From IMG/VR virus record IMGVR_UViG_3300045988_157791: DNA of 64,000 bases, one strand, 5' to 3'. The DNA is from a virus. Lineage: Duplodnaviria; Heunggongvirae; Uroviricota; Caudoviricetes. This document shows, piece by piece, positions 3,741-39,748 of this stretch. The translations under genes and the position numbers were made by a program. Below the pieces are notes generated by a model. That model had not been told where the DNA came from. It ran no database searches and was given only the letters and a program-made list of their open reading frames with translations. Every line of letters starts with the position of its first letter. Positions within the stretch are counted from its first letter, which is position 1.

Positions 3741-5315
3741 TCACTCGTTCTCTTGAGTAGATGAGTCCCCATTCCCTCGGGGTTGATCTTGCCCGCTTTC
3801 TTGGGCTGCACCACGATCATAAGTAAGTACTGACTTATTTTCAAGGGTATTTAGATCATTTTTTGGAGGAAAATTCAAGAGATCTTTATCAAATTCCTTT
3901 TTCATCGCCTCAGTAATGTTCGGGAAAATCTTCTCAATAAGCATTTCCATCTGGTGACGACGTACAGAGTCCGGTGCCTGAAGTAATGACAGTTTCTCGG
4001 CAACAGAAAATTCATCAGTAAGGCCACGAATATCGAAACTTTCTGGATATGCAATTAAAGAGTGGTCTTCGTCCAGATCTACCCCCATCCATTTCGCAAC
4101 CAGTAGCATGATTTGGCGTTCAGCCCTTTCCAGACGCTCTGCTTTTGTGACAAGCAAGCTATTTACACGCTGGAAGTCATACATTTTTGCGGCACCAGAT
4201 GAATTATCGATTCCCTGTGCGTTGTCCTGCTTCGTTCGCTCACCAGCTACACCAACTGAATGGTAGATTTCGTTAATCACCGTCTTAATCGTAGTGATGA
4301 TCATCTGAGCTTGTTTCGGGTCTGGTGACAGATAAAACGGCTGGTTTCCACCTTCAGAATCGTAGGTGAAGACTCGCTTTGTGCCCATTTCAAGCACTTT
4401 AGTGTGGTTTTCATCACCAGGTAAAAGCGACTGTACCGGTATAGCCAACTGGCTAAATGTCTGATCCTGAATAATGGCATCAAGGTTTGACAGATAGTTT
4501 GCAACCGCACGATCAAGATAAGCGATATCATCGATCAACGATGGGCTGAAATACGGTGATTCACTTTCTCCAATACAATCAACAGGAAACACAGGAACTA
4601 CGCCGAGATTATGCTCACCGCTATCCTCTAAAATAACTTTTGCCTGACGGCGACCTGCTCCACCAGCGCCCTTCTTCACTTCCTCACGGAACAGATACCA
4701 CTCGTTTTGTGTCCACAGACGATAACGTTGGTATTCCTGACCTGTAGAAGTAAAAGGATCTGCGTCATCACGAGCGACTTCCACAATTAACGCCCACAAC
4801 ATATTCCCGTCGTCGTCCCATGCCACATCCAGCATTTGCTGAGGTGAAATCCAGTAGGCGTAGGCGCGAGCATCTTTCTTTTTCTCGTCAGCTACTGACT
4901 CAACATCACCACTCATCGTGCTATCGACAACAACCCATATGCGACCGTAAATAGACGACTGCAAATCAATAGCGGCCATAAATGAGTCAATAGAGGCATT
5001 CTGGCGAGTCGCACGTTTCCAGAAATTGCGGATCTGCTCTGGTGCCTCTTCGATATTTCTATGAATGTCTTCTTTAAAGAGATATTTGTTGATGAGGTTT
5101 ACCACCTCACGAGTGTGGTTGAAGCGATAAGCACGTTCAACTCGCTCCTTAAACTCCTGATCTCCCTCTTTAAAGTAACGAAAGATATTGTCTGTAAACC
5201 AACCACGCCCGCCAGCGTAAGTGCTGGCGAGGAAGTCCCAATGTTCTTTTTTCTTTTCGTATTCCGGGTGGCGTCGCGCCACCAGATCCTTAATTTGTTT
5301 GTCGTTCAATTCCAT
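3741..5315 (-). CDS. putative portal protein
   Basis: 524 aa ORF immediately downstream of large terminase; size and position typical of portal. Confidence 0.5.
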   Translation of the reverse strand: MELNDKQIKDLVARRHPEYEKKKEHWDFLASTYAGGRGWFTDNIFRYFKEGDQEFKERVERAYRFNHTREVVNLINKYLFKEDIHRNIEEAPEQIRNFWKRATRQNASIDSFMAAIDLQSSIYGRIWVVVDSTMSGDVESVADEKKKDARAYAYWISPQQMLDVAWDDDGNMLWALIVEVARDDADPFTSTGQEYQRYRLWTQNEWYLFREEVKKGAGGAGRRQAKVILEDSGEHNLGVVPVFPVDCIGESESPYFSPSLIDDIAYLDRAVANYLSNLDAIIQDQTFSQLAIPVQSLLPGDENHTKVLEMGTKRVFTYDSEGGNQPFYLSPDPKQAQMIITTIKTVINEIYHSVGVAGERTKQDNAQGIDNSSGAAKMYDFQRVNSLLVTKAERLERAERQIMLLVAKWMGVDLDEDHSLIAYPESFDIRGLTDEFSVAEKLSLLQAPDSVRRHQMEMLIEKIFPNITEAMKKEFDKDLLNFPPKNDLNTLENKSVLTYDRGAAQESGQDQPRGNGDSSTQENE

Positions 5316-5341
5316 TTGAATAACCTTAGATAATTACTTAC

Positions 5342-6598
5342 CTATCGAGAACCACCAAGAATAACACGGTTTTTGACTGGATACCTACGATGTACTGGAT
5401 AGCCCAATGCGTCTGCACTATGCTCAATGCCACCTGTCTTATCCATATCTCGTGTTCCAGGCTTGTAGATGACTTTTTCCAGTGAATCAATCAAATGCTT
5501 GCACTTCGGATCGATATACAGCCGGATATCTCCAGATGCGGACATCAGCATTCGGTTAACAGCATTAACACGATCCGCAATTGGCGGGTGCTTTTTCGAA
5601 TAATCGACACGTAAGAATCCCTTCTCTTTGAATATGTCTACGTCAGACTCCCCACGAGCATGTTGGCGATAAGCACCTGCCGGATCTGGAAATACCGTTA
5701 CCTGTGATTTCCAGCGCCAGAAGCGTCTCTCAAGCTCATCACAAACTTCTGCCGTGTTAGAGGAAAAGAGCACCAATTCATCAATTGCCCATAGCTCACC
5801 ATTTGGCTGAGGTTGCAAAATTACTGAAGACATCGGGTCAATGTTGAAGTCCTGCCCTACCCATATAGGCAACCGAGGGTTGAACTGAAGCGGTTTTACA
5901 TGCACGTTACGATCGAACGGGTAGTAAACGCGCCCGGACATGTTCTCAAAGCTGGCCAGGTACTCCTGAGCGAACGATTTGGGGTCCATATCGTTCTTAG
6001 CAGCTTCAATTTCCGCCGTAGGTACAAACGGAGAATCGGCAGTTACAAACTGCCAGCTCTTCCACTGTCCCTTTCTTTGCAGCTCTACGTTCTGGCCTAT
6101 AGTCCACAGTTTGTGAAATTCCGAGAAGCCTTTTGGCGTACCAATGATCAGTGCACCGCCGCGTGTCGATGAAAGAGTAGGTCGTAACACCTTGTACCAG
6201 GTGTCAGCCTTCATATCCTGAAATTCATCAAGCACTACAAAATGCAACGCTACGCCGCGCAGAGTGTCAGGCTTATCAGCACCTTTGAGGGCGATCTCCG
6301 AACCGTTCTTCAACACGATTGTCATCGTGGTGTCGTTCTTTTTCCTAACCCACTTACGAGGCAGAACTTCCTGTAGATCGTCCCACAAAATCTGGCGAGC
6401 CATCTGGTAAGTAGGAGCGACATACCAGACCCTTTGCTTTTTTTCCTTTGCCGCCGCACGAATAATAGTGGAGATCGACAACCGGGATTTTCCCCAGCGT
6501 CGACCAGCACAAACAACTTTAAATCGATGCGGAGACTGGAAGACTTTCATCTGTCCAGAATGCAGTTGCACAAGACTGAGCGAGGACGGGATTGCCAT
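5342..6598 (-). CDS. terminase large subunit
   Basis: Walker A-like VVCAGRRWGKSRLS near N-terminus, followed by nuclease-like C-terminal half; stop/start coupled with small subunit. Confidence 0.7.
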   Translation of the reverse strand: MAIPSSLSLVQLHSGQMKVFQSPHRFKVVCAGRRWGKSRLSISTIIRAAAKEKKQRVWYVAPTYQMARQILWDDLQEVLPRKWVRKKNDTTMTIVLKNGSEIALKGADKPDTLRGVALHFVVLDEFQDMKADTWYKVLRPTLSSTRGGALIIGTPKGFSEFHKLWTIGQNVELQRKGQWKSWQFVTADSPFVPTAEIEAAKNDMDPKSFAQEYLASFENMSGRVYYPFDRNVHVKPLQFNPRLPIWVGQDFNIDPMSSVILQPQPNGELWAIDELVLFSSNTAEVCDELERRFWRWKSQVTVFPDPAGAYRQHARGESDVDIFKEKGFLRVDYSKKHPPIADRVNAVNRMLMSASGDIRLYIDPKCKHLIDSLEKVIYKPGTRDMDKTGGIEHSADALGYPVHRRYPVKNRVILGGSR

Positions 6599-12243: not shown

Positions 12244-12522
12244 ATGAGCGAAAAGAAAACAACTTATTGCCAAGTGGCATTGTCTGATAAGGCCAATGAA
12301 AAACTTGGAAAATTTCAAATAAAACTCAAAGAGAAAAAAATCAAGATGTCTAAGGCTGAAGTTATCAATGCCATTCTGGAGACGATGACTATGGCTGAAT
12401 TTGACAAAGTCACATCTGCCGTTGGGGTTTCCGCTAAGACGCGTGAGAAAATCATGCGCATCTATGAGAACTCCAATATGACAAAAAAAGATCTAGAGGA
12501 AATACTGAGCAGGTTGCCGTAA
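12244..12522 (+). CDS. small hypothetical protein, possible ribbon-helix-helix regulator
   Basis: 92 aa, lysine-rich, starts 3 nt after helicase stop. Confidence 0.3.
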   Translation: MSEKKTTYCQVALSDKANEKLGKFQIKLKEKKIKMSKAEVINAILETMTMAEFDKVTSAVGVSAKTREKIMRIYENSNMTKKDLEEILSRLP

Positions 12523-12587
12523 CATTTCATATTTACCCCCTATCTACTAATTCTATGATGTGCTCACTTGTTAGAAAGGAGCACATC

Positions 12588-13154
12588 ATGAGTTGGTTAA
12601 AAGAATTATCATTTGTTGACACCACTGGCGCTAAGAAAAATCATTCTTTCTGGAAAGTCAGCGATCCTTCCGATTTTCTTGTTGGTGCTAATGCTGCTTT
12701 TGAATTGCTTAACTTTTATCAACGTTATCCTGAAATGAAACACAGTCCACTCCTGTACAGAATAACAAACGATATGAATAGGTCTGGTTTATTATCAAGT
12801 GAGTCAGCGAAAGGCTTTTTTAGCAAAATTACGCCACACATATCATTCGATTCAGCAAACGAAATTGATTATCTACCCACGAAACCTCAAGAACAATTAT
12901 CTGTACCACCTGAGAAAAAAGAAAGACGAATTGCCAGCATTGAAAATATATCGAAAGAGCTTCGCACAACAACGTTGAGGCTGCTGAACTTTCTTACGCT
13001 ACTTAATTGGATAGATGATCAAACATTGATTCCATCAACCGATGCGTTGGATAACAGAGTCCTTAGGCTGAACAAAAAATCGCAATTTGGTTTTGTGTTC
13101 ACCAAAAAAGGTGAAGATTTAATCAAAAGAAAATATAGATTATTGAATGATTAA
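12588..13154 (+). CDS. hypothetical protein
   Basis: ORF track 12555..13154; internal ATG at 12588 preceded by AAAGGAG 7 nt upstream chosen as start. Confidence 0.35.
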   Translation: MSWLKELSFVDTTGAKKNHSFWKVSDPSDFLVGANAAFELLNFYQRYPEMKHSPLLYRITNDMNRSGLLSSESAKGFFSKITPHISFDSANEIDYLPTKPQEQLSVPPEKKERRIASIENISKELRTTTLRLLNFLTLLNWIDDQTLIPSTDALDNRVLRLNKKSQFGFVFTKKGEDLIKRKYRLLND

Positions 13155-13539
13155 TAGTCTACATGCAGGTGTATGAGAGCACCTGCATGTGACACTCATC
13201 ACATTTTTGAATGTATATACCTTCGGCTGAAAAAAGATCTTGATAGGCTGAATGATATTTGTAGGCTTCGCCTCCGAAGAAATTCGGAGGATATATGCGA
13301 CAATTTATAAAAACGTGTGACCTAAGAAATATAGTAGATGATATTGCATGTGATGAAATTAGCAAAAAAGAGAAGAACAAAAACGCCAATTAACGCTATC
13401 TACCTATAAATCTGAAGAGTTCAATAGGATGCATATCTGAAACACGCCCTCGACGATACCAAAAAGATTTGTCGAGGGCGTCGGGCTTTCCCTATGTCTG
13501 AACGATTAAATTTTACAGCAATTAAATATTTTGTATATG

Positions 13540-14340
13540 TTATTCTTCTGGTGGTACGACAAAATCGTCGAGTTTATTCTTTTCGTCTCGAAGCAACCTG
13601 ATTTCTTCTTCTGTTATGCATTTGTCATAATCTGTTTGTTCAGAATGGCACAGCGCAACTGCGAATGGATAGCCGGTGTAAGACAGCCCTCTAACAGGTT
13701 CTAATTCACCGTTGTCTTTTTTCCTAAATTTGTAAAAGTCAGGAGTGTCATAATTGGTGACGCTAACAAGAGCATATTTATCATTTTCTCTTGCATACAC
13801 TTCACTAACACCTCTCGATTCGCCCAACTCTCTACTCACATATGTCGAATCACTTGCAGCATCAAACACAGCCTGACCTAATGGAGTTTTTTTTAAATCA
13901 TCTATTTTCTCTTTTTCCTTCCTGATTTTAGATTCGTTTTCCAGATAAAGTTTCACACCATTTTCTTTACATGCTAGATTTTGGCGTTCAAAACGTAATC
14001 GTTCTCTTGCCGAGTTGGTACTTTTATCCATTGTAACGAATACAATCGGGTTACGTTCACGAACATCAAAGATGTGTGCATTGAATGCGGTCGCACCTGT
14101 ATAGGCGTTCAAGACGTTTTTGCCATTCACCTCTCCACATACCATATATGAATAGCTATTTTCACCTAACTGAATAGCTCGCATATTCGTGAACCGACCA
14201 GCATCAGGATCTAGCAGTGTAGAGCGAATATCCTTTTCAACTAGATTTATGGCTCGCTCTTCATCAGAATCACAACCTGTTAATAGTAAAGCCGCTATTA
14301 ACAATGCTAATGAGTATTTTTTATTCACCCCATTCTTCAT
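13540..14340 (-). CDS. putative lipoprotein
   Basis: Signal peptide with lipobox LALLIAALLLTG-C; 266 aa. Confidence 0.5.
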   Translation of the reverse strand: MKNGVNKKYSLALLIAALLLTGCDSDEERAINLVEKDIRSTLLDPDAGRFTNMRAIQLGENSYSYMVCGEVNGKNVLNAYTGATAFNAHIFDVRERNPIVFVTMDKSTNSARERLRFERQNLACKENGVKLYLENESKIRKEKEKIDDLKKTPLGQAVFDAASDSTYVSRELGESRGVSEVYARENDKYALVSVTNYDTPDFYKFRKKDNGELEPVRGLSYTGYPFAVALCHSEQTDYDKCITEEEIRLLRDEKNKLDDFVVPPEE

Positions 14341-14442
14341 GAAACTTATTCCATAATCAATTTTTGGTGGAATGTACGGTTAGTCTGTCTACGCATCATA
14401 GAGATGTATATAATGACCAAAAAAGACTTAAAAAGGTAGACT

Positions 14443-14964
14443 ATGGTTAAAGACATCACCTACGGCATACCGGCTGAAGTCTGGCCGCGAGACTACGAAC
14501 ATGCTGAAAACATACTTATGTTCTGGCGGAAGAACAACATTCCTGTAAGAGTCACGCTTGAAGACGGTCAGGTGTTTTGCATGTACGTTCAGGGGACAAT
14601 GCCTTCCCGCAATAAGCTAGATTTATGCCCGCTTCCATATGATAAAGAAAATCGTATAAGACTCCCACTTGAGCGCATTAGCACAATTGAATCAGGTGTA
14701 ATCGATGGCATTGCTCGCGAGTTCAAAGGTAGGCTAACAATACATCCAGACTATGTTGACAATCAGCCATCACGCCGTGACTTTTTTGCGATATGTCGCA
14801 AGGCTTATCAAAACGACCAATCTATAAGGGTCTACATGGCAGACGGTCGTGAAATAGAAGGGGTGTCAAGAGGCGTTGATGCTTGTCAGGTCACTCTTAA
14901 GTTAGAAGACGGCAGAAAAATACTTGTTTTCTTCGATTGGGTTGAACGAATCCTTCCATTTTAA
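14443..14964 (+). CDS. hypothetical protein with internal duplicated small beta-rich motif
   Basis: 173 aa; IPVRVTLEDGQVF and VTLKLEDGRKILVF repeated segments (Rof/Sm-like pattern, weak); TATAAT at ~14409 upstream. Confidence 0.4.
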   Translation: MVKDITYGIPAEVWPRDYEHAENILMFWRKNNIPVRVTLEDGQVFCMYVQGTMPSRNKLDLCPLPYDKENRIRLPLERISTIESGVIDGIAREFKGRLTIHPDYVDNQPSRRDFFAICRKAYQNDQSIRVYMADGREIEGVSRGVDACQVTLKLEDGRKILVFFDWVERILPF

Positions 14965-14976
14965 ATCTATAAGGGT

Positions 14977-15008
14977 AATAACCGGCTAAGTCCGGTTATT
15001 ATTTTACA
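14977..15008 (+). terminator. intrinsic terminator
   Basis: AATAACCGGCTAAGTCCGGTTATT hairpin followed by ATTTT. Confidence 0.5.
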
Positions 15009-15155
15009 TGCCATTCATTTAAAACTCTTTCAATGCCACTCTGTATAAATATATAAGGTTAAAAGCCTGAATTGATTATTTATTTAGGGAACACCTTCGA
15101 CGATCTTGCTTTTATTTCTAGGACTTTCATCCCTGCAAAAATTTAAAAAAAACAC

Positions 15156-15183
15156 TTGCAATCTTTTTTCACGTATCGATAAT
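15156..15183 (+). promoter_or_regulatory. sigma70-like promoter (TTGCAA-16 bp-GATAAT)
   Basis: -35 TTGCAA at 15156-15161, -10 GATAAT at 15178-15183, ~75 nt upstream of ATG 15259. Confidence 0.4.
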
Positions 15184-15258
15184 TGAACTCGTCGAAAGCG
15201 AGCTGGCTAACGACAGCAAAAAATAAATTCATTTTAATTTTTCGTAAGGATGTCCATC

Positions 15259-15909
15259 ATGGCTAACATTATCATTTCTAAAAAATCCATCGTTGAAGCT
15301 GCTTCCATTGTATCCGATGAACTGCGCGAAAAAGCAGATCTGGCAACTCAAACATATAACGAACATTATAAAAATGGTACGCACACTAAAGCAGACAAAG
15401 CAAATATGCAAGCTGCGACCACTAAACTTGCTTACTTCATCAACAACGTTGTAAACGCTGTAGAAGAAGAAAAATTATGCTCTGTTTTCTACTATGCGAT
15501 CAAAGCAAGTAAACAAGCGCCAGAAGCATTTTTCCGTGATGCAATGGCTAACAGTTATTCTCTGGAAAAACTGGTTTATCTGGTCAAATCAATTAAATCT
15601 GGTAAATGCGTTTATTCCGTCGCTGATATGTCAGGATCTCGTGTATTCGCTTTAATCGATATGATTAACGACGAGATCGACACGTTCACCAATGGCGCTG
15701 TTTTCGATTTAATGAATGAAGCAAAAAAAGCGTGCGAAATTAAATTGGACGCTGGCTATACTCAAGCCAACCAGTTGATCAATCTTTGCGAACGTCTCGG
15801 ACTTGTTGAAAAAGTCAAAGGAGCTGGGAGCGCGAAAGCTGGTACTCAGCAATATCGCTTCATTAAAAATGATTTCTATAACTATCTGGCTGATGCTTTT
15901 AAAGCGTAA
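15259..15909 (+). CDS. hypothetical protein (self-contained moron-like unit)
   Basis: ORF track 15250..15909; ATG 15259 has AAGGA at proper spacing; flanked by promoter and terminator. Confidence 0.45.
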   Translation: MANIIISKKSIVEAASIVSDELREKADLATQTYNEHYKNGTHTKADKANMQAATTKLAYFINNVVNAVEEEKLCSVFYYAIKASKQAPEAFFRDAMANSYSLEKLVYLVKSIKSGKCVYSVADMSGSRVFALIDMINDEIDTFTNGAVFDLMNEAKKACEIKLDAGYTQANQLINLCERLGLVEKVKGAGSAKAGTQQYRFIKNDFYNYLADAFKA

Positions 15910-15921
15910 TTAATGGAATCT

Positions 15922-22894: not shown

Positions 22895-24928
22895 TTACTT
22901 AACCTGGTGGCCAGGTTTAGCACCAGCATCCGGGCTTAACAGGAAGATATCTTTCCCGCCGGGGCCAGCAGCCATCACCATGCCTTCAGAGATACCGAAG
23001 CGCATTTTACGTGGTGCCAGGTTAGCCACCATAATGGTGTGACGACCAATCAGTGCCTGCGGATCCGGGTAGGCAGAACGAATACCGGAGAAGACATTGC
23101 GTTTTTCACCGCCGAGATCCAGTGTCAGGCGCAGCAGTTTGTCAGAACCTTCAACAAACTCTGCGTTTTCGATCAGCGCTACGCGCAGGTCAACTTTGGC
23201 GAAGTCGTCAAAGGTGATGGTTTCCTGAATCGGATCATCTGCCAGTGGGCCAGTAACTGGCGCGGCAGCTGCTTTCACTTCTTCTTTAGACGCTTCCACC
23301 AGTGCTTCAACCTGCTTCATATCGATGCGGTTATACAGTGCCTTGAACGGATTTACTTTATGGCCCAGCAGCGGTTGCTGGATACCATCCCAGGTCAGTT
23401 CTGTATTCAGGAATGCTTCTGCACGTTCAGTCAGTTTCGGCAGTACCGGCTTCAGGTACGTCATCAGCACGCGGAACAGGTTAATGCCCATAGAGCAAAT
23501 CGCCTGCAGATCGGCATCGCGTCCTTCCTGCTTCGCCACCACCCACGGAGCCTGTTCATCGACATAGCGGTTAGCCAGGTCAGCCAGTGCCATGATTTCA
23601 CGGATAGCTTTACCAAATTCGCGGCTTTCCCACGCTTCACCAATCACTTCAGCGGCATCAGTGAAGGTTTTGTACAACTGCGGGTCAGCCAGCTCGCTTG
23701 CCAGCACACCGTCAAAACGCTTATTGATAAAGCCAGCGTTACGGGACGCCAGGTTAACCACTTTGTTCACGATATCGGCATTCACACGCTGAACGAAATC
23801 CTCCAGGTTGAGATCGATATCATCAATGCGCGAAGAGAGTTTCGCAGTGTAGTAGTAACGCAGGCTGTCAGCGTCAAAATGATTCAGCCAGGTGCTGGCT
23901 TTAATAAAGGTGCCGCGAGACTTGGACATCTTCGCGCCGTTCACCGTCACATAGCCATGAACAAACAGGTTGGTCGGCTTGCGGAAGTTGCTGCCTTCCA
24001 GCATGGCAGGCCAGAACAGGCTGTGGAAGTAAACGATATCTTTACCGATGAAGTGGTACAGCTCGGCGGTGGAGTCTTTCTTCCAGTATTCATCGAAGCT
24101 TACGCTGTCGCCGCGCTTGTCGCACAGATTCTTGAAAGAACCCATGTAGCCAATCGGTGCGTCCAGCCAGACGTAGAAATATTTGCCCGGCGCGTTCGGA
24201 ATTTCAAAACCGAAGTAAGGGGCGTCGCGGGAGATATCCCACTGTTGCAGGCCAGATTCAAACCACTCCTGCATTTTATTTGCCACCTGCTCCTGCAACG
24301 CACCGCTGCGGGTCCATGCCTGCAACATTTCGCTGAAAGAGGGCAGATCAAAGAAGAAGTGTTCAGAATCACGCATTACCGGCGTAGCACCAGAAACCAC
24401 CGATTTCGGTTCAATCAGTTCAGTCGGGCTGTAGGTCGCGCCGCAGACTTCACAGTTATCGCCGTATTGATCTGGCGCTTTACATTTCGGGCAGGTGCCT
24501 TTCACAAAACGGTCCGGCAGGAACATGCCTTTTTCCGGATCGTACAGCTGAGAGATGGTGCGGTTTTTAATAAAACCGTTTTCTTTCAGGCGAGAGTAGA
24601 TAAGTTCTGACAACTGGCGGTTCTCTTCGCTGTGCGTCGAGTGATAGTTGTCATAGCTGATGTTAAAGCCTGCGAAATCAGTCTGATGTTCCTGACTCAT
24701 TTCGCCAATCATCTGCTCCGGTGTGATACCAAGCTGCTGAGCTTTAAGCATGATCGGCGTGCCGTGGGCATCGTCGGCGCAGATGAAGTTGACCTCGTGG
24801 CCGCGCATTCGCTGGTAACGGACCCAGACATCAGCCTGGATGTGCTCCAGCATATGGCCGAGGTGGATTGAGCCGTTAGCGTACGGCAGCGCGCACGTCA
24901 CCAGAATTTTCTTCGCGACTTGGGTCAT
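22895..24928 (-). CDS. metG: methionine--tRNA ligase
   Basis: 677 aa from [26 protein letters not shown] (HIGH motif) ... KMSKS ... C-terminal tRNA-binding domain; near-identical to Escherichia MetG as recalled; ORF-track N-terminal 43 aa extension rejected. Confidence 0.95.
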
Positions 24929-25085
24929 AGTAGGCATTACTTCTTTGTAGTGAAAAGGGGCTTGATAGTAACAAAATGGCCTTATGTCTGCCATGTGATA
25001 ACAGCATTTCTCATAAATGATTAAATGTCGTAGCTGGAGTACACTACAAGGCGACAATTGCGCAAATTAAAATAAAGGAGACGGG

Positions 25086-30875: not shown

Positions 30876-32561
30876 TCATTTAACGCGTTTGAAAACGTAT
30901 ACGCTGACTGTGATCCCTGTGTCTTCAAACTCGTTGGTAAACGACTTCCCTCTGGCATAAACGTAATTATCCATCGTCATCCAGTCCAGTATTGGCGCAG
31001 TGCCCGGCAATACTGCTACAAGACGCCCGCCGACTTTCAGATGCCCCAGCGCAGCCAGCGTGTGCTCTCTATGACGACCAAGCGAGTACGGCGGGTTCAT
31101 AACGATTTTGTCGAACTGATAACCTACGTTGTCCTCAGACCACTTTATGAAGTCGCAGCAAATCGTGTTCGTATACCCTTTTCCGCGCAGGATATCAGCG
31201 AAGAGAGGTGCGATTTCTATGCAGGTAACATCTTCCAGATCGGCGTTGATATAGGCCAGAAGATCCCCACGTCCGGCTTGAGGCTCCAGCAGCTTCTCAC
31301 CAGACTTCAATTCAGTGGCTCTGGCAACGTACTCAGCAATCAAGCGTGGGGTAGGGTAGAACTGGTGTGATTTTGTATCCGGTATTAATCCGGTAGCCAC
31401 AATCGTATTTAGCGTATGGCCGATCTCATACGGGAACTGCCAGTGCTTTTTCTCCTGCACGCCGCCAATGAAGCTCAGTGTGCGCTCAAGCTCTTCCACC
31501 TGCGACTTCTGGAGAGCTGAATCAGAGAAGTACCATACGCCTTTGTCTTTGCTTAATCGCCCGTCACGAAGCGCAGTGCGAACCGGCACGGAGATCGTCT
31601 TCTGGATTAACCCGAACTGCTTTGGTGCCCGTGTTTTTGGCGCGGTGCGACATGGCGCGGGGATTGCAGCAGGCATACTGTAAGCCAGCACCTCATTCAA
31701 CTTCCAGGCCACGTCAGGATGTATTTCAAAGTGAACGTTGCCGTTCTTGAACATCTTCACGCGCATTAGATTTCCATCGACGTTCATCCAGTCACCGGTC
31801 TGGCAGTCGTTTGCCCGATACGCAGCTGATAGCACCTCAGCAGTGCGGTTGATGGTAATAAATTCTTTGTGCGCGAAGAAATGAAGCAAGACACGCAGAT
31901 CGTCGATATAGTCCTCTTTGCGATAGTTCACACTAACGCTGTCCCGCCAGAAATCAGAAATGCAGTCAGCGATTATCAGACGTTCGCTGAAACCGTTTGT
32001 CTTATTTGTCTTGTGCGCAGGACTCAGCGCCTTAAACAAGCCATACACGCGCTCAGAGAGATATTTGTGCCTGTCATTCAGCAAATTAAGCATCGTGGGT
32101 ATGACCGTTTCTGCTTTGAACTCCGGTACACCAACGAACTCTTTAACCTTCATCTGGTAGCCGGTTCTGTCAGTTTTGATGACTTCCTGTTTGCCCTCTA
32201 TAAACTGCTCGCGCCACTCATCTCGACGGGAAGCTGGCATGATCAGCAAAACGTTAGTCATGTCCGTGACCTTCCTCCAGTACTCGGCCCAAATATTCTG
32301 TTTCACCCATTCCAGATCGACTTTATCCAACCAACCTCGATTTAAACGCGAGCGATCTTCATCTGGTCGATGGTTTAGTCTCAGCAGGCGATTAATCATG
32401 TTGTGGCGTTCGTCGCCATAAACGAAGTCGTGTACCTGATACATGAAGGCGATCTCTTTCTCGCACTCGGCCACAATTTCGTGGATGACGTTCATTTCCT
32501 GCCGATAGTCGATAGCAGTGTTTGAGTTGGCATCGTCGATGATGGAAAGGGCTGTATTCAT
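30876..32561 (-). CDS. DNA methyltransferase (NPPY motif) with ~400 aa N-terminal domain of unknown function
   Basis: C-terminal region has AdoMet motif I-like EPQAGRGDL and motif IV VMNPPYS; N-terminal two-thirds unassigned. Confidence 0.55.
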   Translation of the reverse strand: MNTALSIIDDANSNTAIDYRQEMNVIHEIVAECEKEIAFMYQVHDFVYGDERHNMINRLLRLNHRPDEDRSRLNRGWLDKVDLEWVKQNIWAEYWRKVTDMTNVLLIMPASRRDEWREQFIEGKQEVIKTDRTGYQMKVKEFVGVPEFKAETVIPTMLNLLNDRHKYLSERVYGLFKALSPAHKTNKTNGFSERLIIADCISDFWRDSVSVNYRKEDYIDDLRVLLHFFAHKEFITINRTAEVLSAAYRANDCQTGDWMNVDGNLMRVKMFKNGNVHFEIHPDVAWKLNEVLAYSMPAAIPAPCRTAPKTRAPKQFGLIQKTISVPVRTALRDGRLSKDKGVWYFSDSALQKSQVEELERTLSFIGGVQEKKHWQFPYEIGHTLNTIVATGLIPDTKSHQFYPTPRLIAEYVARATELKSGEKLLEPQAGRGDLLAYINADLEDVTCIEIAPLFADILRGKGYTNTICCDFIKWSEDNVGYQFDKIVMNPPYSLGRHREHTLAALGHLKVGGRLVAVLPGTAPILDWMTMDNYVYARGKSFTNEFEDTGITVSVYVFKRVK

Positions 32562-32664
32562 AATTGCACCATTAAGAAGTGATTTGTTTAATGGTGCAAT
32601 TATTTCAAAAATGAAAAGGTACTAAATAGAAATAAACAGGCAATCCTTCAAATAAAGGCATTGG

Positions 32665-33336
32665 CTAATCATACTTGGAGGTATTTATCACCAGAATTTT
32701 GTTTGTATAAATCTTCTTAATATCCCATGTGACATTACCGGAATACCATTGACCGTTATATACTTGGTTTCCAGTTGCACCTGTCATTGTTACATAGACA
32801 GGTCTGTCGTAATCGGTTCGTCTATAGTTATATACCCCAACCATAGCAGGCATTACCGCACATGGATACCCCATATCTATTGTAAATTGAGGGTCAGAAA
32901 TAGTGATAAGTTTCGCATCAAGGGGCATCATCTCACCGTGATACACCATTGCGCCTGCGCTGTTATACATGGCAATGCCATAGCCAGAATGTGGTAACAC
33001 CATATCAGAAAAAGCATAAACTGTTATTGTTCCGGGGCTACCATTTACCTGATGCAATCTGAGAGCATTGTATCCGTTACTATGCTCATGAATAAACATC
33101 ATGTTCGCCTTATTACTGCTTTTTATGAAGAAAAAGCATGATTTGTTTGATGGGATTGATGTTTGAAAAACAGAACCTTTAGATGTAGACATTGTCCCTT
33201 TATTAATCAGATTTTGCGGAGTAAATTCTGGACTCATCCACAAACTTCCATCTGATTGAGTAATTGACATCCCGAACATAATTATCCCCAGTATGTGTAT
33301 ATGTAAGAACCAAGCCCCGTATATAAATTTGACCAA
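32665..33336 (-). CDS. hypothetical protein in AT-rich insert
   Basis: ORF starts with TTG in track; overlaps upstream ORF in a different frame; markedly AT-rich DNA. Confidence 0.3.
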   Translation of the reverse strand: MVKFIYGAWFLHIHILGIIMFGMSITQSDGSLWMSPEFTPQNLINKGTMSTSKGSVFQTSIPSNKSCFFFIKSSNKANMMFIHEHSNGYNALRLHQVNGSPGTITVYAFSDMVLPHSGYGIAMYNSAGAMVYHGEMMPLDAKLITISDPQFTIDMGYPCAVMPAMVGVYNYRRTDYDRPVYVTMTGATGNQVYNGQWYSGNVTWDIKKIYTNKILVINTSKYD

Positions 33337-33563
33337 CTAACCGTATTTCCATTAATAGTAACTGTTGGAACAGGTAAATTAATGTAGTTGTCGTTGTTAA
33401 GAGGCATCAATGACCACACGGCATGTAGCGATTTACCCGGTGGCGGATTGGAGTACGTCTTAGAGCCTGATGACGCAGTAAATCGATCAAGAAAAAAAAT
33501 AGGAGTAAGGAAGCCAGTAACGTTAATTCCTTTATTGTTGTAAATCCCTGTACCGTATGCCAT
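33282..33563 (-). CDS. hypothetical protein in AT-rich insert (possibly N-terminal part of a frameshifted gene)
   Basis: 93 aa, N/T/G-rich; overlaps 32665..33336 by ~55 nt. Confidence 0.25.
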   Translation of the reverse strand: MAYGTGIYNNKGINVTGFLTPIFFLDRFTASSGSKTYSNPPPGKSLHAVWSLMPLNNDNYINLPVPTVTINGNTVSWSNLYTGLGSYIYTYWG

Positions 33564-33618
33564 TTTTCATCCTTGTTTTTTATCAACACAATATGGCCGA
33601 TCATGCGGCCATATCAGA

Positions 33619-34188
33619 TCAATTAGAGCTTTGAAAGGCTTTGTGTGGCTGTGTTGCGAGGTTATGTCGATGGCTTAACTCACGCATCATGTCTTCAAGC
33701 CGACTCTTTGTGTCGTCGAGTTGGTCGGCCATTGCTCCCAAAAGCTGACGAACGGCCATCGGATCATCGCTGTTTAGTGATGGCATTTTATAACCCGCCT
33801 GAGAAGACATAAGATTGAACGCAGACATCAACATCGTTAGAGAGGATTTAAGCCCAGCAATTTCACGATCTTTGCTGGCAATAATCGCCTCACTCTTGTT
33901 AGTGTCATCAGTTCGTTGAGTCTCGCTCACCATATCCAAAGTCGCCTGCAACTTATCAGCGCGCTCTTTTTCAGCAAGATAATGAACACCGAAATGATGT
34001 GCTAAAGCTACAACCTGAGTTGGCTCTTCAAAGGTGGACTCAAAATTAAGTGCTGTAACCACTCTCTCAAATATGGAAACGTCTTCTATTCCTCGAAGAA
34101 TGGCTAACATTTTGACCAGTTCATTAGCATCCATTTCTTCGAATAAGGCGTTTTGTTCATCAGCTATCGCTTTGCATTTCTTGCACAT
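33619..34188 (-). CDS. hypothetical protein
   Basis: 189 aa; upstream conserved block. Confidence 0.35.
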   Translation of the reverse strand: MCKKCKAIADEQNALFEEMDANELVKMLAILRGIEDVSIFERVVTALNFESTFEEPTQVVALAHHFGVHYLAEKERADKLQATLDMVSETQRTDDTNKSEAIIASKDREIAGLKSSLTMLMSAFNLMSSQAGYKMPSLNSDDPMAVRQLLGAMADQLDDTKSRLEDMMRELSHRHNLATQPHKAFQSSN

Positions 34189-38222: not shown

Positions 38223-39032
38223 TCATCCAATAGTGTACTCCGCGACAAACTTCTTAACGATCGGTGATTCTTCGTTCAATGTTAGATTTCCACCGCCTCT
38301 AACGGCAATTCCTGTCGCTGGAAATACAGCCATCATTTGCCCAGCCTGAGTTGACGCAGTGTTAAGCGGATACGGTTTTTCTGGATTGCTCATTAAAGCA
38401 ATCTTAATACTATTACTTGTAGCCTTCTTTTCTGTGAGAAGGTGTCTCATGGAAATTACCGTGTAAACACTAATATCTGGACCTCCGCTAAACCAATTAA
38501 GAAGGTTTAATATCTTATCCTTTGCTTTGACAGGCGCGTTATCGTAAGCGTCTAAGAAAATATCTTTTTCTAAGCCCGCTTTATTGAAAAACGAATCATC
38601 TTTATCACTTAAAGTAAAACGAGGACCTCTTGCAGTACGAGCTTTTTTATTTGTATTGCTATCATTTGACTGTTGAACTTTTAATTCATCATTAACCTCA
38701 ACACACTCTTCAACCTCAATAAATCCCAATTGTTCTGGCTCGTTTTCGGCAGCTTCAACACTTTCAGCGTTAATTACGTTTATAGGCTCATGCGCTAACT
38801 CCAACTCATTTAAAGCAGAGCTGAAATCACCTGCTTTTTCTTCATTGAACAGTTCTTCGGCAACATCATCAGAACTCATGGCTACGCCAGCATCTAGGCC
38901 GAGCAGCAGATCGTCAATATCATCAGTATTTTCAACCTGTGCAGCTTTTTTTACTGGTTCATCAAGTGATTGCAACATGGCTGTCAGCTCGTCCAGATCA
39001 TCATTTGTCATTACATTTTCAACCGAACTCAT
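38223..39032 (-). CDS. hypothetical acidic protein
   Basis: 269 aa, strongly acidic N-terminal half. Confidence 0.35.
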   Translation of the reverse strand: MSSVENVMTNDDLDELTAMLQSLDEPVKKAAQVENTDDIDDLLLGLDAGVAMSSDDVAEELFNEEKAGDFSSALNELELAHEPINVINAESVEAAENEPEQLGFIEVEECVEVNDELKVQQSNDSNTNKKARTARGPRFTLSDKDDSFFNKAGLEKDIFLDAYDNAPVKAKDKILNLLNWFSGGPDISVYTVISMRHLLTEKKATSNSIKIALMSNPEKPYPLNTASTQAGQMMAVFPATGIAVRGGGNLTLNEESPIVKKFVAEYTIG

Positions 39033-39190
39033 GTAAGTCTCCTTCTGTTTGGTTACATTTGCGTTTCGATGGCTACATTTTGACTAAACCTATCAGGCGG
39101 AAAAGTATTAAATACAGGCAGGAAATGATTGAAAGGCGACTGTTCTTTAAAAGAAAGCCTACTTTAAACTTTTTAAAGTAGGCTTTTGTT

Positions 39191-39748
39191 TTACACAATT
39201 TCAGAGGGTAATTTAAAAAATCCGTACTTATTACGTGCCTTAAAGAAGCATTGCATCATTAAGTTTGTGTCATATAAGGCACTATGTGCTTTGGCATGAT
39301 CGTATATAAAGCCAAGAGAGAAGGCCAACTCTTCAAGGCGGGGACGTTTACCGTCTTCTGTGGCCCACAATCCCGATAACATAGTATCTATAACAGGAAC
39401 TTCTGGCAGTCTTACTCCATACCCTGAAAACTCGTGTCGAATAAATGGTATATCAAATGCTTCGCCGTTATGAGCAACCCACACACTACATGCCCCCATA
39501 TAAGCGCCAATTTCGCTGGCATGATTTGACAACAAAGGTTCAGCTGCGAGCTGTTCCAATGAAATGCCATGAACGGCTTGAGCTTTCGGATCTATGTTTC
39601 TGCGAGGGTTAAAACGCATCTCCAGACTATCAATATGTCTCTGTGTCTCCAGTTCATAGCGGGTAATTGCGATTTCAATAATTTTATGACCAGCAAGGAA
39701 ATCCAGTCCCGTAGACTCGATATCGATGCCTGCAACAATCGTTGTCAT
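39191..39748 (-). CDS. DnaQ-like (DEDDh) 3'-5' exonuclease
   Basis: Exo I GIDIESTG, Exo II HNGEAFDIPF, Exo III H...ALYD. Confidence 0.6.
   Translation of the reverse strand: MTTIVAGIDIESTGLDFLAGHKIIEIAITRYELETQRHIDSLEMRFNPRRNIDPKAQAVHGISLEQLAAEPLLSNHASEIGAYMGACSVWVAHNGEAFDIPFIRHEFSGYGVRLPEVPVIDTMLSGLWATEDGKRPRLEELAFSLGFIYDHAKAHSALYDTNLMMQCFFKARNKYGFFKLPSEIV

Follow-up and report, generated by a model that had tools for sequence, protein, structure and literature searches.

An AT-rich insert in an SSU5-like phage-plasmid carries two distinct genes of a putative receptor-binding pair

Introduction

The stretch of viral DNA examined here, 64,000 nucleotides from IMG/VR virus record IMGVR_UViG_3300045988_157791 (Duplodnaviria, Heunggongvirae, Uroviricota, Caudoviricetes; hereafter called the window), contains an AT-rich segment of about 1 kb near position 33,000 whose two minus-strand open reading frames (ORFs) appear to overlap. 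A preliminary description of this DNA, made from the letters alone, raised the possibility that the two ORFs represent a recently acquired gene that is frameshifted, decayed to a pseudogene, or read by programmed frameshifting. The locus therefore poses the question of whether one gene or two are present, and what their product or products might do. We find that the segment is a horizontally acquired cassette of two intact genes, here named A and B, whose relatives in other phages almost always reside beside the gene for the central tail fibre or needle. The explanation that accounts best for the data overall, and that we hold to be somewhat probable, is that the phage-plasmid acquired a two-gene receptor-binding cassette at a site displaced from its tail genes.

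Results

Two separate genes underlie the apparent overlap

Both ORFs are present on the minus strand at the positions originally reported, and the described abundance of N, T, G and Y residues is confirmed. When S is counted as well, these residues make up 52% of protein A and 40% of protein B. The two genes and their junction are as follows.

33282..33563, minus strand: gene A, 93 amino acids, ATG start and TAA stop, PHROG 557
32665..33279, minus strand: gene B, 204 amino acids, start codon ATG 33279-33277, PHROG 425; 'hand-like' beta protein and putative receptor-binding subunit
33277..33289, minus strand: A/B junction, composed of GGGGA (33289-33285), TAA (33284-33282), TT and ATG (33279-33277)

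The 55-nucleotide overlap that gave the locus its broken appearance arises only if ORF B is extended to a TTG at 33336, whereas the conserved start is the ATG at 33279-33277, as evident by the fact that every full-length B homologue begins at the methionine of this codon. The TTG directly follows a TAG and is an unused upstream start that is chosen by a "first possible start" rule. On the minus strand, the junction reads ...TAC TGG GGA TAA TT ATG TTC GGG ATG TCA..., such that a Shine-Dalgarno-like GGGGA is embedded within the last codons of A (W-G), five bases upstream of the ATG of B. The same design is evident in relatives. Among 19 distinct junction sequences drawn from 81 loci, all have an ATG belonging to B either 2 or 5 nucleotides past the stop codon of A, and 18 carry TGGGG(A/G) ahead of this ATG, with the other (locus L028) carrying TGGAGG. 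The order of A then B is constant among relatives, and B occupies the -1 frame relative to A in every clade. The junction is one of translational coupling between two genes, not of recoding.

Each protein also belongs to a family of its own. Protein A aligns over its full length with phrog_557 (E 4.7e-29), its residues 1-93 covering positions 1-92 of the 100 in the profile, and B likewise aligns with phrog_425 (E 2.2e-72), its residues 1-204 covering positions 3-224 of the 224. Apart from a few database variants that are truncated or frameshifted, homologues of A are full-length at 92-94 amino acids, and the most distant share about 48-59% identity with it. Homologues of B have 203-206 amino acids (216 in one case) and extend down to about 40-49% identity. 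The C-terminus of A (WSNLYTGLGSYIYTYWG) is among the best-conserved parts of the protein in A's own frame. No fused A-B protein is present among the homologue hits from a search of 5.8 billion proteins, and a conceptual A+B fusion yields no match in Pfam. Both genes are under purifying selection, each in its own frame. This separate conservation of A and B across many relatives, which the preliminary description itself had set against its proposal, refutes the existence of a single frameshifted gene or a pseudogene. We consider it nearly certain that A and B are distinct, intact genes, and that they belong to PHROG 557 and PHROG 425, respectively.

The gene pair is an acquired insert in a phage-plasmid

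Positions 32400-33800 are 100% identical to many plasmids of E. coli and E. albertii with sizes of ~107-112 kb. Two relatives of Salmonella phage SSU5, the phages Cyrano and CMS-2020a, match this region at 98.6-99.6% identity. Because of these matches to plasmids and SSU5-related phages, the window is assigned, on sequence grounds, as part of an E. coli SSU5-like phage-plasmid. Comparison with SSU5 defines the following features at and around the gene pair.

33619-34188, minus strand: gene for a 189-amino-acid protein, GC 0.44, flanking the insert
32656..33618 (approximate limits; ~960 nucleotides), no strand assigned: segment acquired relative to SSU5, from an alignment with the SSU5 intergenic region
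33591..33614, minus strand: 9-bp perfect hairpin, ATATGGCCG/CGGCCATAT, between the stop codon of the upstream gene and the ribosome-binding site of gene A
30876-32561, minus strand: gene for a DUF4942 N6-methyltransferase, ATG at 32561, GC 0.499

The insert extends from just past the stop codon of the 189-amino-acid protein gene to ~95 nucleotides upstream of the DUF4942 methyltransferase start. These last ~95 nucleotides can still be aligned to SSU5, whereas the sequence from about 32656 to 33618 is new. In SSU5, the methylase gene and a 190-amino-acid protein gene are separated by only 141 nucleotides that include a terminator hairpin, and the insert replaces both this spacing and the hairpin. 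The genes on either side are orthologous in SSU5, with 93.8% nucleotide identity for the methylase region and 61% amino acid identity for the 189-amino-acid protein. No direct repeats flank the insert as a signature of transposition.

The proposal that this segment was acquired is borne out by its absence from the SSU5 site and by its patchy occurrence, in ~119 of 421 related PLSDB plasmids (~28%); it is also carried by four of 13 phage records. Other members harbor a second allele at the same site, with amino acid identities of 87-88% for A and 86-87% for B (86-88% overall). The nearest relative from outside the plasmids is the gp22-gp21 gene pair of phages JenP1 and JenP2, where the similarity is confined to the coding sequence and amounts to 78-80% nucleotide identity (78% for JenP1).

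The drop in GC content originally reported over ~1 kb is real in a windowed analysis, but it is modest rather than sharp. Positions 32655-33615 (about 961 nucleotides) have a GC content of 0.39 compared to 0.46 for the window, with values of 0.397 for gene A and 0.387 for gene B. Equal-sized windows that are as low in GC make up 4.5% of the total, and four other patches are lower still. Patches with GC contents of 0.36-0.375 are found at 12461-15921 and 38361-39321, and these may be further acquired segments. The AT-rich patch that carries A and B is a horizontally acquired two-gene cassette that codes for two separate proteins.

No promoter-like sites are evident in either of the intergenic regions beside the pair, and the hairpin at 33591-33614 is not followed by a T-run and is not called as a terminator. 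All genes near the pair are on the minus strand, and A and B are probably co-transcribed with these neighbors.

Related gene pairs occupy the receptor-binding locus of other phages

The association with receptor-binding genes that was mentioned in the preliminary description holds true, as the pair resides at the receptor-binding protein (RBP) locus in other phages. It occurs in Nonagvirus, T1-like and Stx phages, and 58 of 61 non-plasmid loci encode a J-type C-terminus within 400 nucleotides of the pair. Thus, elsewhere the pair almost always adjoins the 3′ end of a central tail-fibre or needle gene that encodes a J-type C-terminal domain. In Nonagvirus JenP1, the pair (gp22/gp21) is convergent on J and is located 41 nucleotides from the end of J. 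Warwickvirus genomes (tonn gp66/gp67, FritzSarasin and many others) place it in a JenP1-like position, with a Cor-like lipoprotein gene ahead of the pair. More distant members of PHROG 557 and PHROG 425 are located directly after J in the Hanrivervirus phages vojen and slyngel and in Yersinia phage P400. In Stx2 phage 86, the pair follows a gene for a 422-amino-acid needle or "tail fiber" protein and precedes lom. The C-terminal 280 residues of this protein are homologous to the J C-terminus of JenP1 (E 1e-10), and its J-like ending is ...IEVYDENGRLAVRIGRLS.

The lipoprotein gene product of tonn (gp65; L083:5451-5720) begins with MKKLIAVIATVAALTGC and matches the Cor superinfection-exclusion (SE) family (PHROG 1119, 8.4e-08). 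This protein is likely to be a BtuB-directed exclusion protein. The arrangement of lipoprotein and pair in tonn mirrors the arrangement of SE lipoprotein and RBP in LptD-type loci (PMC12685063).

A 'bona fide RBP locus' downstream of gpJ has been defined in small siphoviruses, where its alleles track the specificity for the terminal receptor (Maffei et al. 2021, PMC8594841). A 2026 preprint confirmed this correlation between locus and receptor and noted that the RBP is accompanied by one or two accessory proteins (10.64898/2026.04.02.716166). JenP1, JenP2 and Cyrano are absent from the receptor predictions in the supplements of the 2026 receptor-prediction preprint. The homologues of B are linked to two different receptors. 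BamA is the proposed receptor for Stx phages, and the Stx2 phage 86 homologue of B is 62% identical over the full length. BtuB is used by Warwickvirus FritzSarasin (Bas04) (PMC8594841, supplementary file 5), which carries a tonn-type pair. The homologue from tonn, which is BtuB-linked in this manner, is 40% identical to B, with the C-terminal ~55 residues of B being unalignable, and the corresponding value for A is 49%. The identities to JenP1 are higher, at 76% for A and 83% for B.

Proteins of these two families have been modelled previously. Matusiak et al. 2025 (PMC12309495) analysed PHROG 557 and PHROG 425 proteins of Dhillonvirus JLBYU60, Traversvirus phi24B and a Pseudomonas phage, named PHROG 557 the 'Ig-like small protein' and PHROG 425 the 'hand-like protein', and modelled the two as an overlooked receptor-binding tip of a central spike that has no binding domain of its own. 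A preprint on the cryo-electron microscopy of phi24B (10.64898/2026.04.10.717836) reports extra density of low resolution at the needle tip, detects gp54 (204 amino acids) at low abundance but not gp55 in the virion proteome, and suggests that gp54, alone or with gp55, binds BamA. Therefore, the PHROG 557/425 module is already described as a putative receptor-binding tip, and only its position in a phage-plasmid is unusual here.

The gp55/gp54 pair of phi24B resembles A and B in families, gene order, lengths (204-205 amino acids for the B-type protein) and coupling layout. However, the Stx phages have the pair directly after the needle gene and before lom, whereas here it is ~60 kb from J in a siphovirus-type phage-plasmid. 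Likewise, the homologous pairs of Nonagvirus JenP1 and the Warwickviruses share order and coupling with the phage-plasmid pair, but they converge on J within about 40 nucleotides and, in Warwickvirus, are accompanied by the Cor-like SE lipoprotein gene, unlike in the phage-plasmid.

Features of the two proteins

The AlphaFold2 model of A is all-beta with a pLDDT of 82, and a fold search with it returns only generic lectin-like sandwiches and no specific match. On the basis of this model, A appears to be a small lectin- or Ig-like beta-sandwich protein. Both proteins lack a hydrophobic N-terminus, and no signal peptide, lipobox or transmembrane segment is evident in either (the maximal 19-residue Kyte-Doolittle means are 0.94 for A and 1.1 for B), and therefore the database names 'outer membrane protein' for A and 'membrane associated protein' for B are unfounded. 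NCBIfam has no family for A or B, no PADLOC defence family matches either protein at E <= 0.01, and when solved structures were searched by sequence, neither the profile of A nor that of B produced anything meaningful. The PHROGs category assigned to family 425 is 'moron'.

A homopolymer within gene A (A8 on the plus strand, T8 on the minus strand, at ~33492-33499) codes for a conserved IFFL motif and reads T_TTT_TTT in A's frame. A few database variants of A (P0030 and P0038) look frameshifted around or after such homopolymer runs. The 'broken' copies of A in assemblies are probably sequencing or assembly errors.

Protein B shares its fold with a solved RBP (PDB 9RPT chain C). This RBP is a DUF6453 / PHROG 1265 protein encoded in the same locus, and the family includes the Oekolampad RBP and Rtp44 (PMC12685063, PMC13035648). 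The sequence similarity of B to this family is weak. Its score against DUF6453 (PF20051) is 15.4 bits, versus a cut-off of 25, at positions 187-247 of ~290, its match to PHROG 1265 is at 2.6e-06, and hhalign to DUF6453 gives an E value of 0.0022 and a probability of 12.8%. Because the fold is shared but the sequence match is weak, we regard B as a distant structural relative of DUF6453 rather than a member. DUF6453 RBPs are single chains of 309-321 amino acids that bind LptD, whereas here there are two chains. The matches of B to DUF6453 and PHROG 1265 run from about profile position 155 onward, which is colinear with a split of one protein into two but is not evidence for it.

We considered whether A and B together represent a split DUF6453 protein. 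The conceptual fusion has no Pfam hit, and A alone neither matches PF20051 nor has detectable similarity to the N-terminus of DUF6453 (hhalign probability 0.3%). It may be that a single ancestral RBP gave rise, by fission or fusion, to the A/B binder of two chains and the DUF6453 binder of one chain.

A tail tip of the class found beside such pairs

If A and B act in the virion, B would dock non-covalently on the trimeric C-terminal tip of J, A would serve as a small adaptor or accessory subunit to B, and the docked proteins together would provide recognition of a protein receptor. A precedent for such logic is found in phage T5, whose pb5 is a separate RBP docked on the tip of the trimeric central fibre and targets an outer-membrane protein, with Llp as the SE lipoprotein. 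However, pb5 is a single protein of 640 amino acids that has no sequence relationship to A or B, and the cassette has no SE lipoprotein.

The window contains no ORF of more than 771 amino acids, and the J gene of this element lies outside it. In the described module, the central fibre would end in a J-type 'knife-like' C-terminal domain and carry no Ig-like receptor-binding domain. The J of Cyrano has 1575 amino acids and is homologous over its last ~190 residues to the J proteins of JenP1 (38% identity) and tonn (32%). An alignment of the last 110 amino acids of J or needle proteins (loci L002, L028 and L082-L089) separates two classes of tip. The first class ends in ...VY-D.N.VL-RV.IGRL and includes JenP1, tonn, L028, Stx gp26, vojen, slyngel and P400, all of which are encoded beside A/B-type pairs. 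The second class has a longer ending and includes Oekolampad and L089, where the fibre is followed by a single-chain DUF6453 RBP. Cyrano J ends in a tip of the first class (...IDVYDDNNVLRVRIGRL), but SSU5 shares this tip and lacks the pair.

Locus L089 is from a distantly SSU5-like E. coli contig of 103 kb (GCA_050572525.1). Its J is 63% identical to Cyrano J over the aligned stretch, with the switch of class occurring in the last ~45 residues. Directly downstream of J is a DUF6453 RBP gene (5001-5960), which is followed by a Gp34-trimer/Peptidase_S74 fibre gene and then by a Gp38_N-domain gene. This locus indicates that relatives of the phage-plasmid group use J-adjacent RBP cassettes.

Weighing a receptor-binding function

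Several observations weigh against a role for A and B in receptor binding by the phage-plasmid virion or favor the view of an orphan or repurposed cassette. According to this alternative, the two proteins are produced but do not serve as virion RBPs, and they could represent either an accessory 'moron' with another, intracellular role or a functionless recent passenger. No J-type C-terminus is encoded within 3 kb on either side of the pair in any of 24 plasmid-clade loci. In Cyrano, whose sequence is 98.6% identical, J is at 17.7-22.4 kb and the pair is at 81.9-82.8 kb, a distance of ~60 kb from the tail module. The cassette is surrounded by genes of accessory or early type (Ea22-like, Eaa-like, methylase, TciA/B-like and RNase H). 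Within the group, the J tip does not covary with the presence of the cassette, as the J C-terminus of SSU5, which has no cassette, is 88.9% identical and that of an insert-carrying variant is 86.9% identical. The cassette has no cognate SE lipoprotein gene, and only ~28% of related plasmids carry the insert. Furthermore, PHROGs places family 425 among the morons, and a place in the virion and the binding of a receptor are putative throughout the family, including for the phi24B proteins.

Other observations count against an orphan cassette. Across 20 plasmid-clade loci, neither gene is disrupted and both hardly vary, and the second allele (86-88% amino acid identity) is found at the same site. 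Labels such as 'membrane' and 'moron' are unsupported, as evident by the absence of a signal peptide, lipobox or transmembrane segment from both proteins, and PADLOC returns no hits. Strictly lytic phages retain the pair at the RBP locus, and a homologue is present in the phi24B virion proteome (10.64898/2026.04.10.717836). Nor is distance from the tail genes without precedent for an adhesin, because gp38 is encoded 55 kb from gp37 in Krischvirus (10.64898/2026.04.02.716166). We therefore judge an orphan or repurposed cassette to be unlikely, although it is the strongest of the competing views. An acquired, displaced receptor-binding cassette remains the explanation we prefer, while the narrower claim that A and B serve as a virion receptor-binding module in this very element strikes us as evenly balanced.

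Recoding and gene decay as alternative explanations

Following the suggestion in the preliminary description that the overlap be inspected for slippery heptamers, we found one such sequence.

33330-33324, minus strand: heptamer A_AAT_TTA in A's frame, spanning codons S-N-L of the invariant WSNL motif; canonical -1 slippery pattern

This raises the possibility that, in this allele, a -1 frameshift yields a minor fusion of A residues 1-79, a linker and B, in addition to separate A and B proteins. The heptamer conforms to the canonical X_XXY_YYZ pattern in A's frame, no stop codon interrupts the -1 frame over the 17 codons from the heptamer into the ATG of B, and B is in the -1 frame in all clades. 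Moreover, only ~0.06 in-frame heptamers are expected by chance in the 18 codons of the overlap. However, the heptamer is present in just five of the 19 distinct junctions, which derive from two phage-plasmid alleles only. The corresponding sequence is TCG AAC TTA in JenP1, TCA AAC CTG in L028 and TCN AAT CTT in the Stx clade. Stop codons interrupt the -1 frame in the Stx clade (TGA) and in the Warwickvirus clade. The numbers of variable sites at the first, second and third codon positions of A's frame are 12, 10 and 17 (of 19 each), and these third positions coincide with first positions in the -1 frame. At the protein level, the putative linker (FIYGAWFLHIHILGII) shows no conservation. Finally, no stimulatory structure is evident in the 70 nucleotides downstream, whose minimum free energy of -7.8 kcal/mol compares to a mean of -9.1 kcal/mol for shuffled sequences (z +0.58).

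To our knowledge, AAU-UUA is not efficient as a bacterial shift site. As in the lambda G/GT tail assembly chaperone type, two ORFs adjoin each other here, the downstream one lies in the -1 frame, and their overlap includes a heptamer of slippery appearance. G/GT-type genes, however, combine a conserved shift site with a downstream ORF that lacks an independent start codon. At the present locus, the ATG and the ribosome-binding site of B are conserved while the heptamer is not, and relatives have a closed -1 frame. Thus the heptamer is present as suspected but is judged to be fortuitous, and programmed frameshifting in this allele is very improbable.

The view that a single ancestral gene is disrupted here, either by a frameshift of recent origin or through sequencing error, which might be prompted by adjacent ORFs in different frames within an AT-rich, homopolymer-containing region (such as the A8 run at ~33492-33499) and by the few frameshifted-looking database variants (P0030 and P0038), can be dismissed, because the identical two-gene layout recurs in hundreds of independent plasmid and phage records, including those of functional lytic phages, the sequence is 100% identical to many complete plasmids, and the starts and stops of both genes are conserved.

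Other features of the window

The remaining genes of note in the neighborhood of the pair are as follows.

Near the A/B pair, minus strand: Ea22-like and Eaa-like genes, accessory or early-type
Near the A/B pair, minus strand: TciA/TciB-like genes and a gene for RNase H

No tRNAs were found across the window, and no Rfam families were found in 32300-33900. The DUF4942 methyltransferase encoded at 30876-32561 matches the PADLOC model mad2 (methylation-associated defence) at 5e-15, in addition to type II methyltransferase models, and the mad2 match probably reflects merely the common methylase domain. A perfect 16-bp inverted repeat (ATAATTGCACCATTAA / TTAATGGTGCAATTAT) with a 12-nucleotide loop is located at 32560-32603, where it overlaps the start-codon region of the methyltransferase gene. 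SSU5 has only a weaker version of this repeat. Such a structure could occlude the translation start of the methylase.

Elsewhere in the window, an ORF at 22895-25057 (minus strand; 720 amino acids, TTG start) overlaps almost completely with an opposite-strand ORF at 23039-24610 (plus strand; 523 amino acids, GTG start). One of these two ORFs must be spurious.

Discussion

The immediate value of these findings is for annotation. Two genes whose products carry the names "outer membrane protein" and "membrane associated protein", and which look broken under naive ORF calling, correspond to an intact pair that belongs to the putative receptor-recognition genes of enterobacterial phages.

A second consequence concerns the prediction of receptors from sequence. 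Phages for which BamA is reported (phi24B-type; L030-L078) and phages that use BtuB (Bas04-type; L079, L080 and L083) have B homologues that are joined in one family through the B protein of the window, at 100% coverage. A rule by which more than 30% identity means the same receptor would lump BamA users and BtuB users together. Either this rule fails here, or B is not a BamA binder. A B family that joins BamA and BtuB phages at identities of at least 40% calls for caution when receptors are predicted from identity thresholds.

We tentatively propose, as an idea with less behind it than the acquisition of the cassette, that SSU5-like phage-plasmids carry their terminal-receptor determinant as an unlinked, swappable cassette that arms a generic J-type tip with a binder of an outer-membrane protein (BamA- or BtuB-like). 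If this is true, a 1-kb insertion that is common to lytic Nonagvirus and Stx phages would reprogram the host range of these plasmids. If the pair does work in the virion, receptor determinants would need no linkage to tail genes, and A and B would be a determinant of which bacteria are entered by widespread phage-plasmids of E. coli, Shigella and Salmonella.

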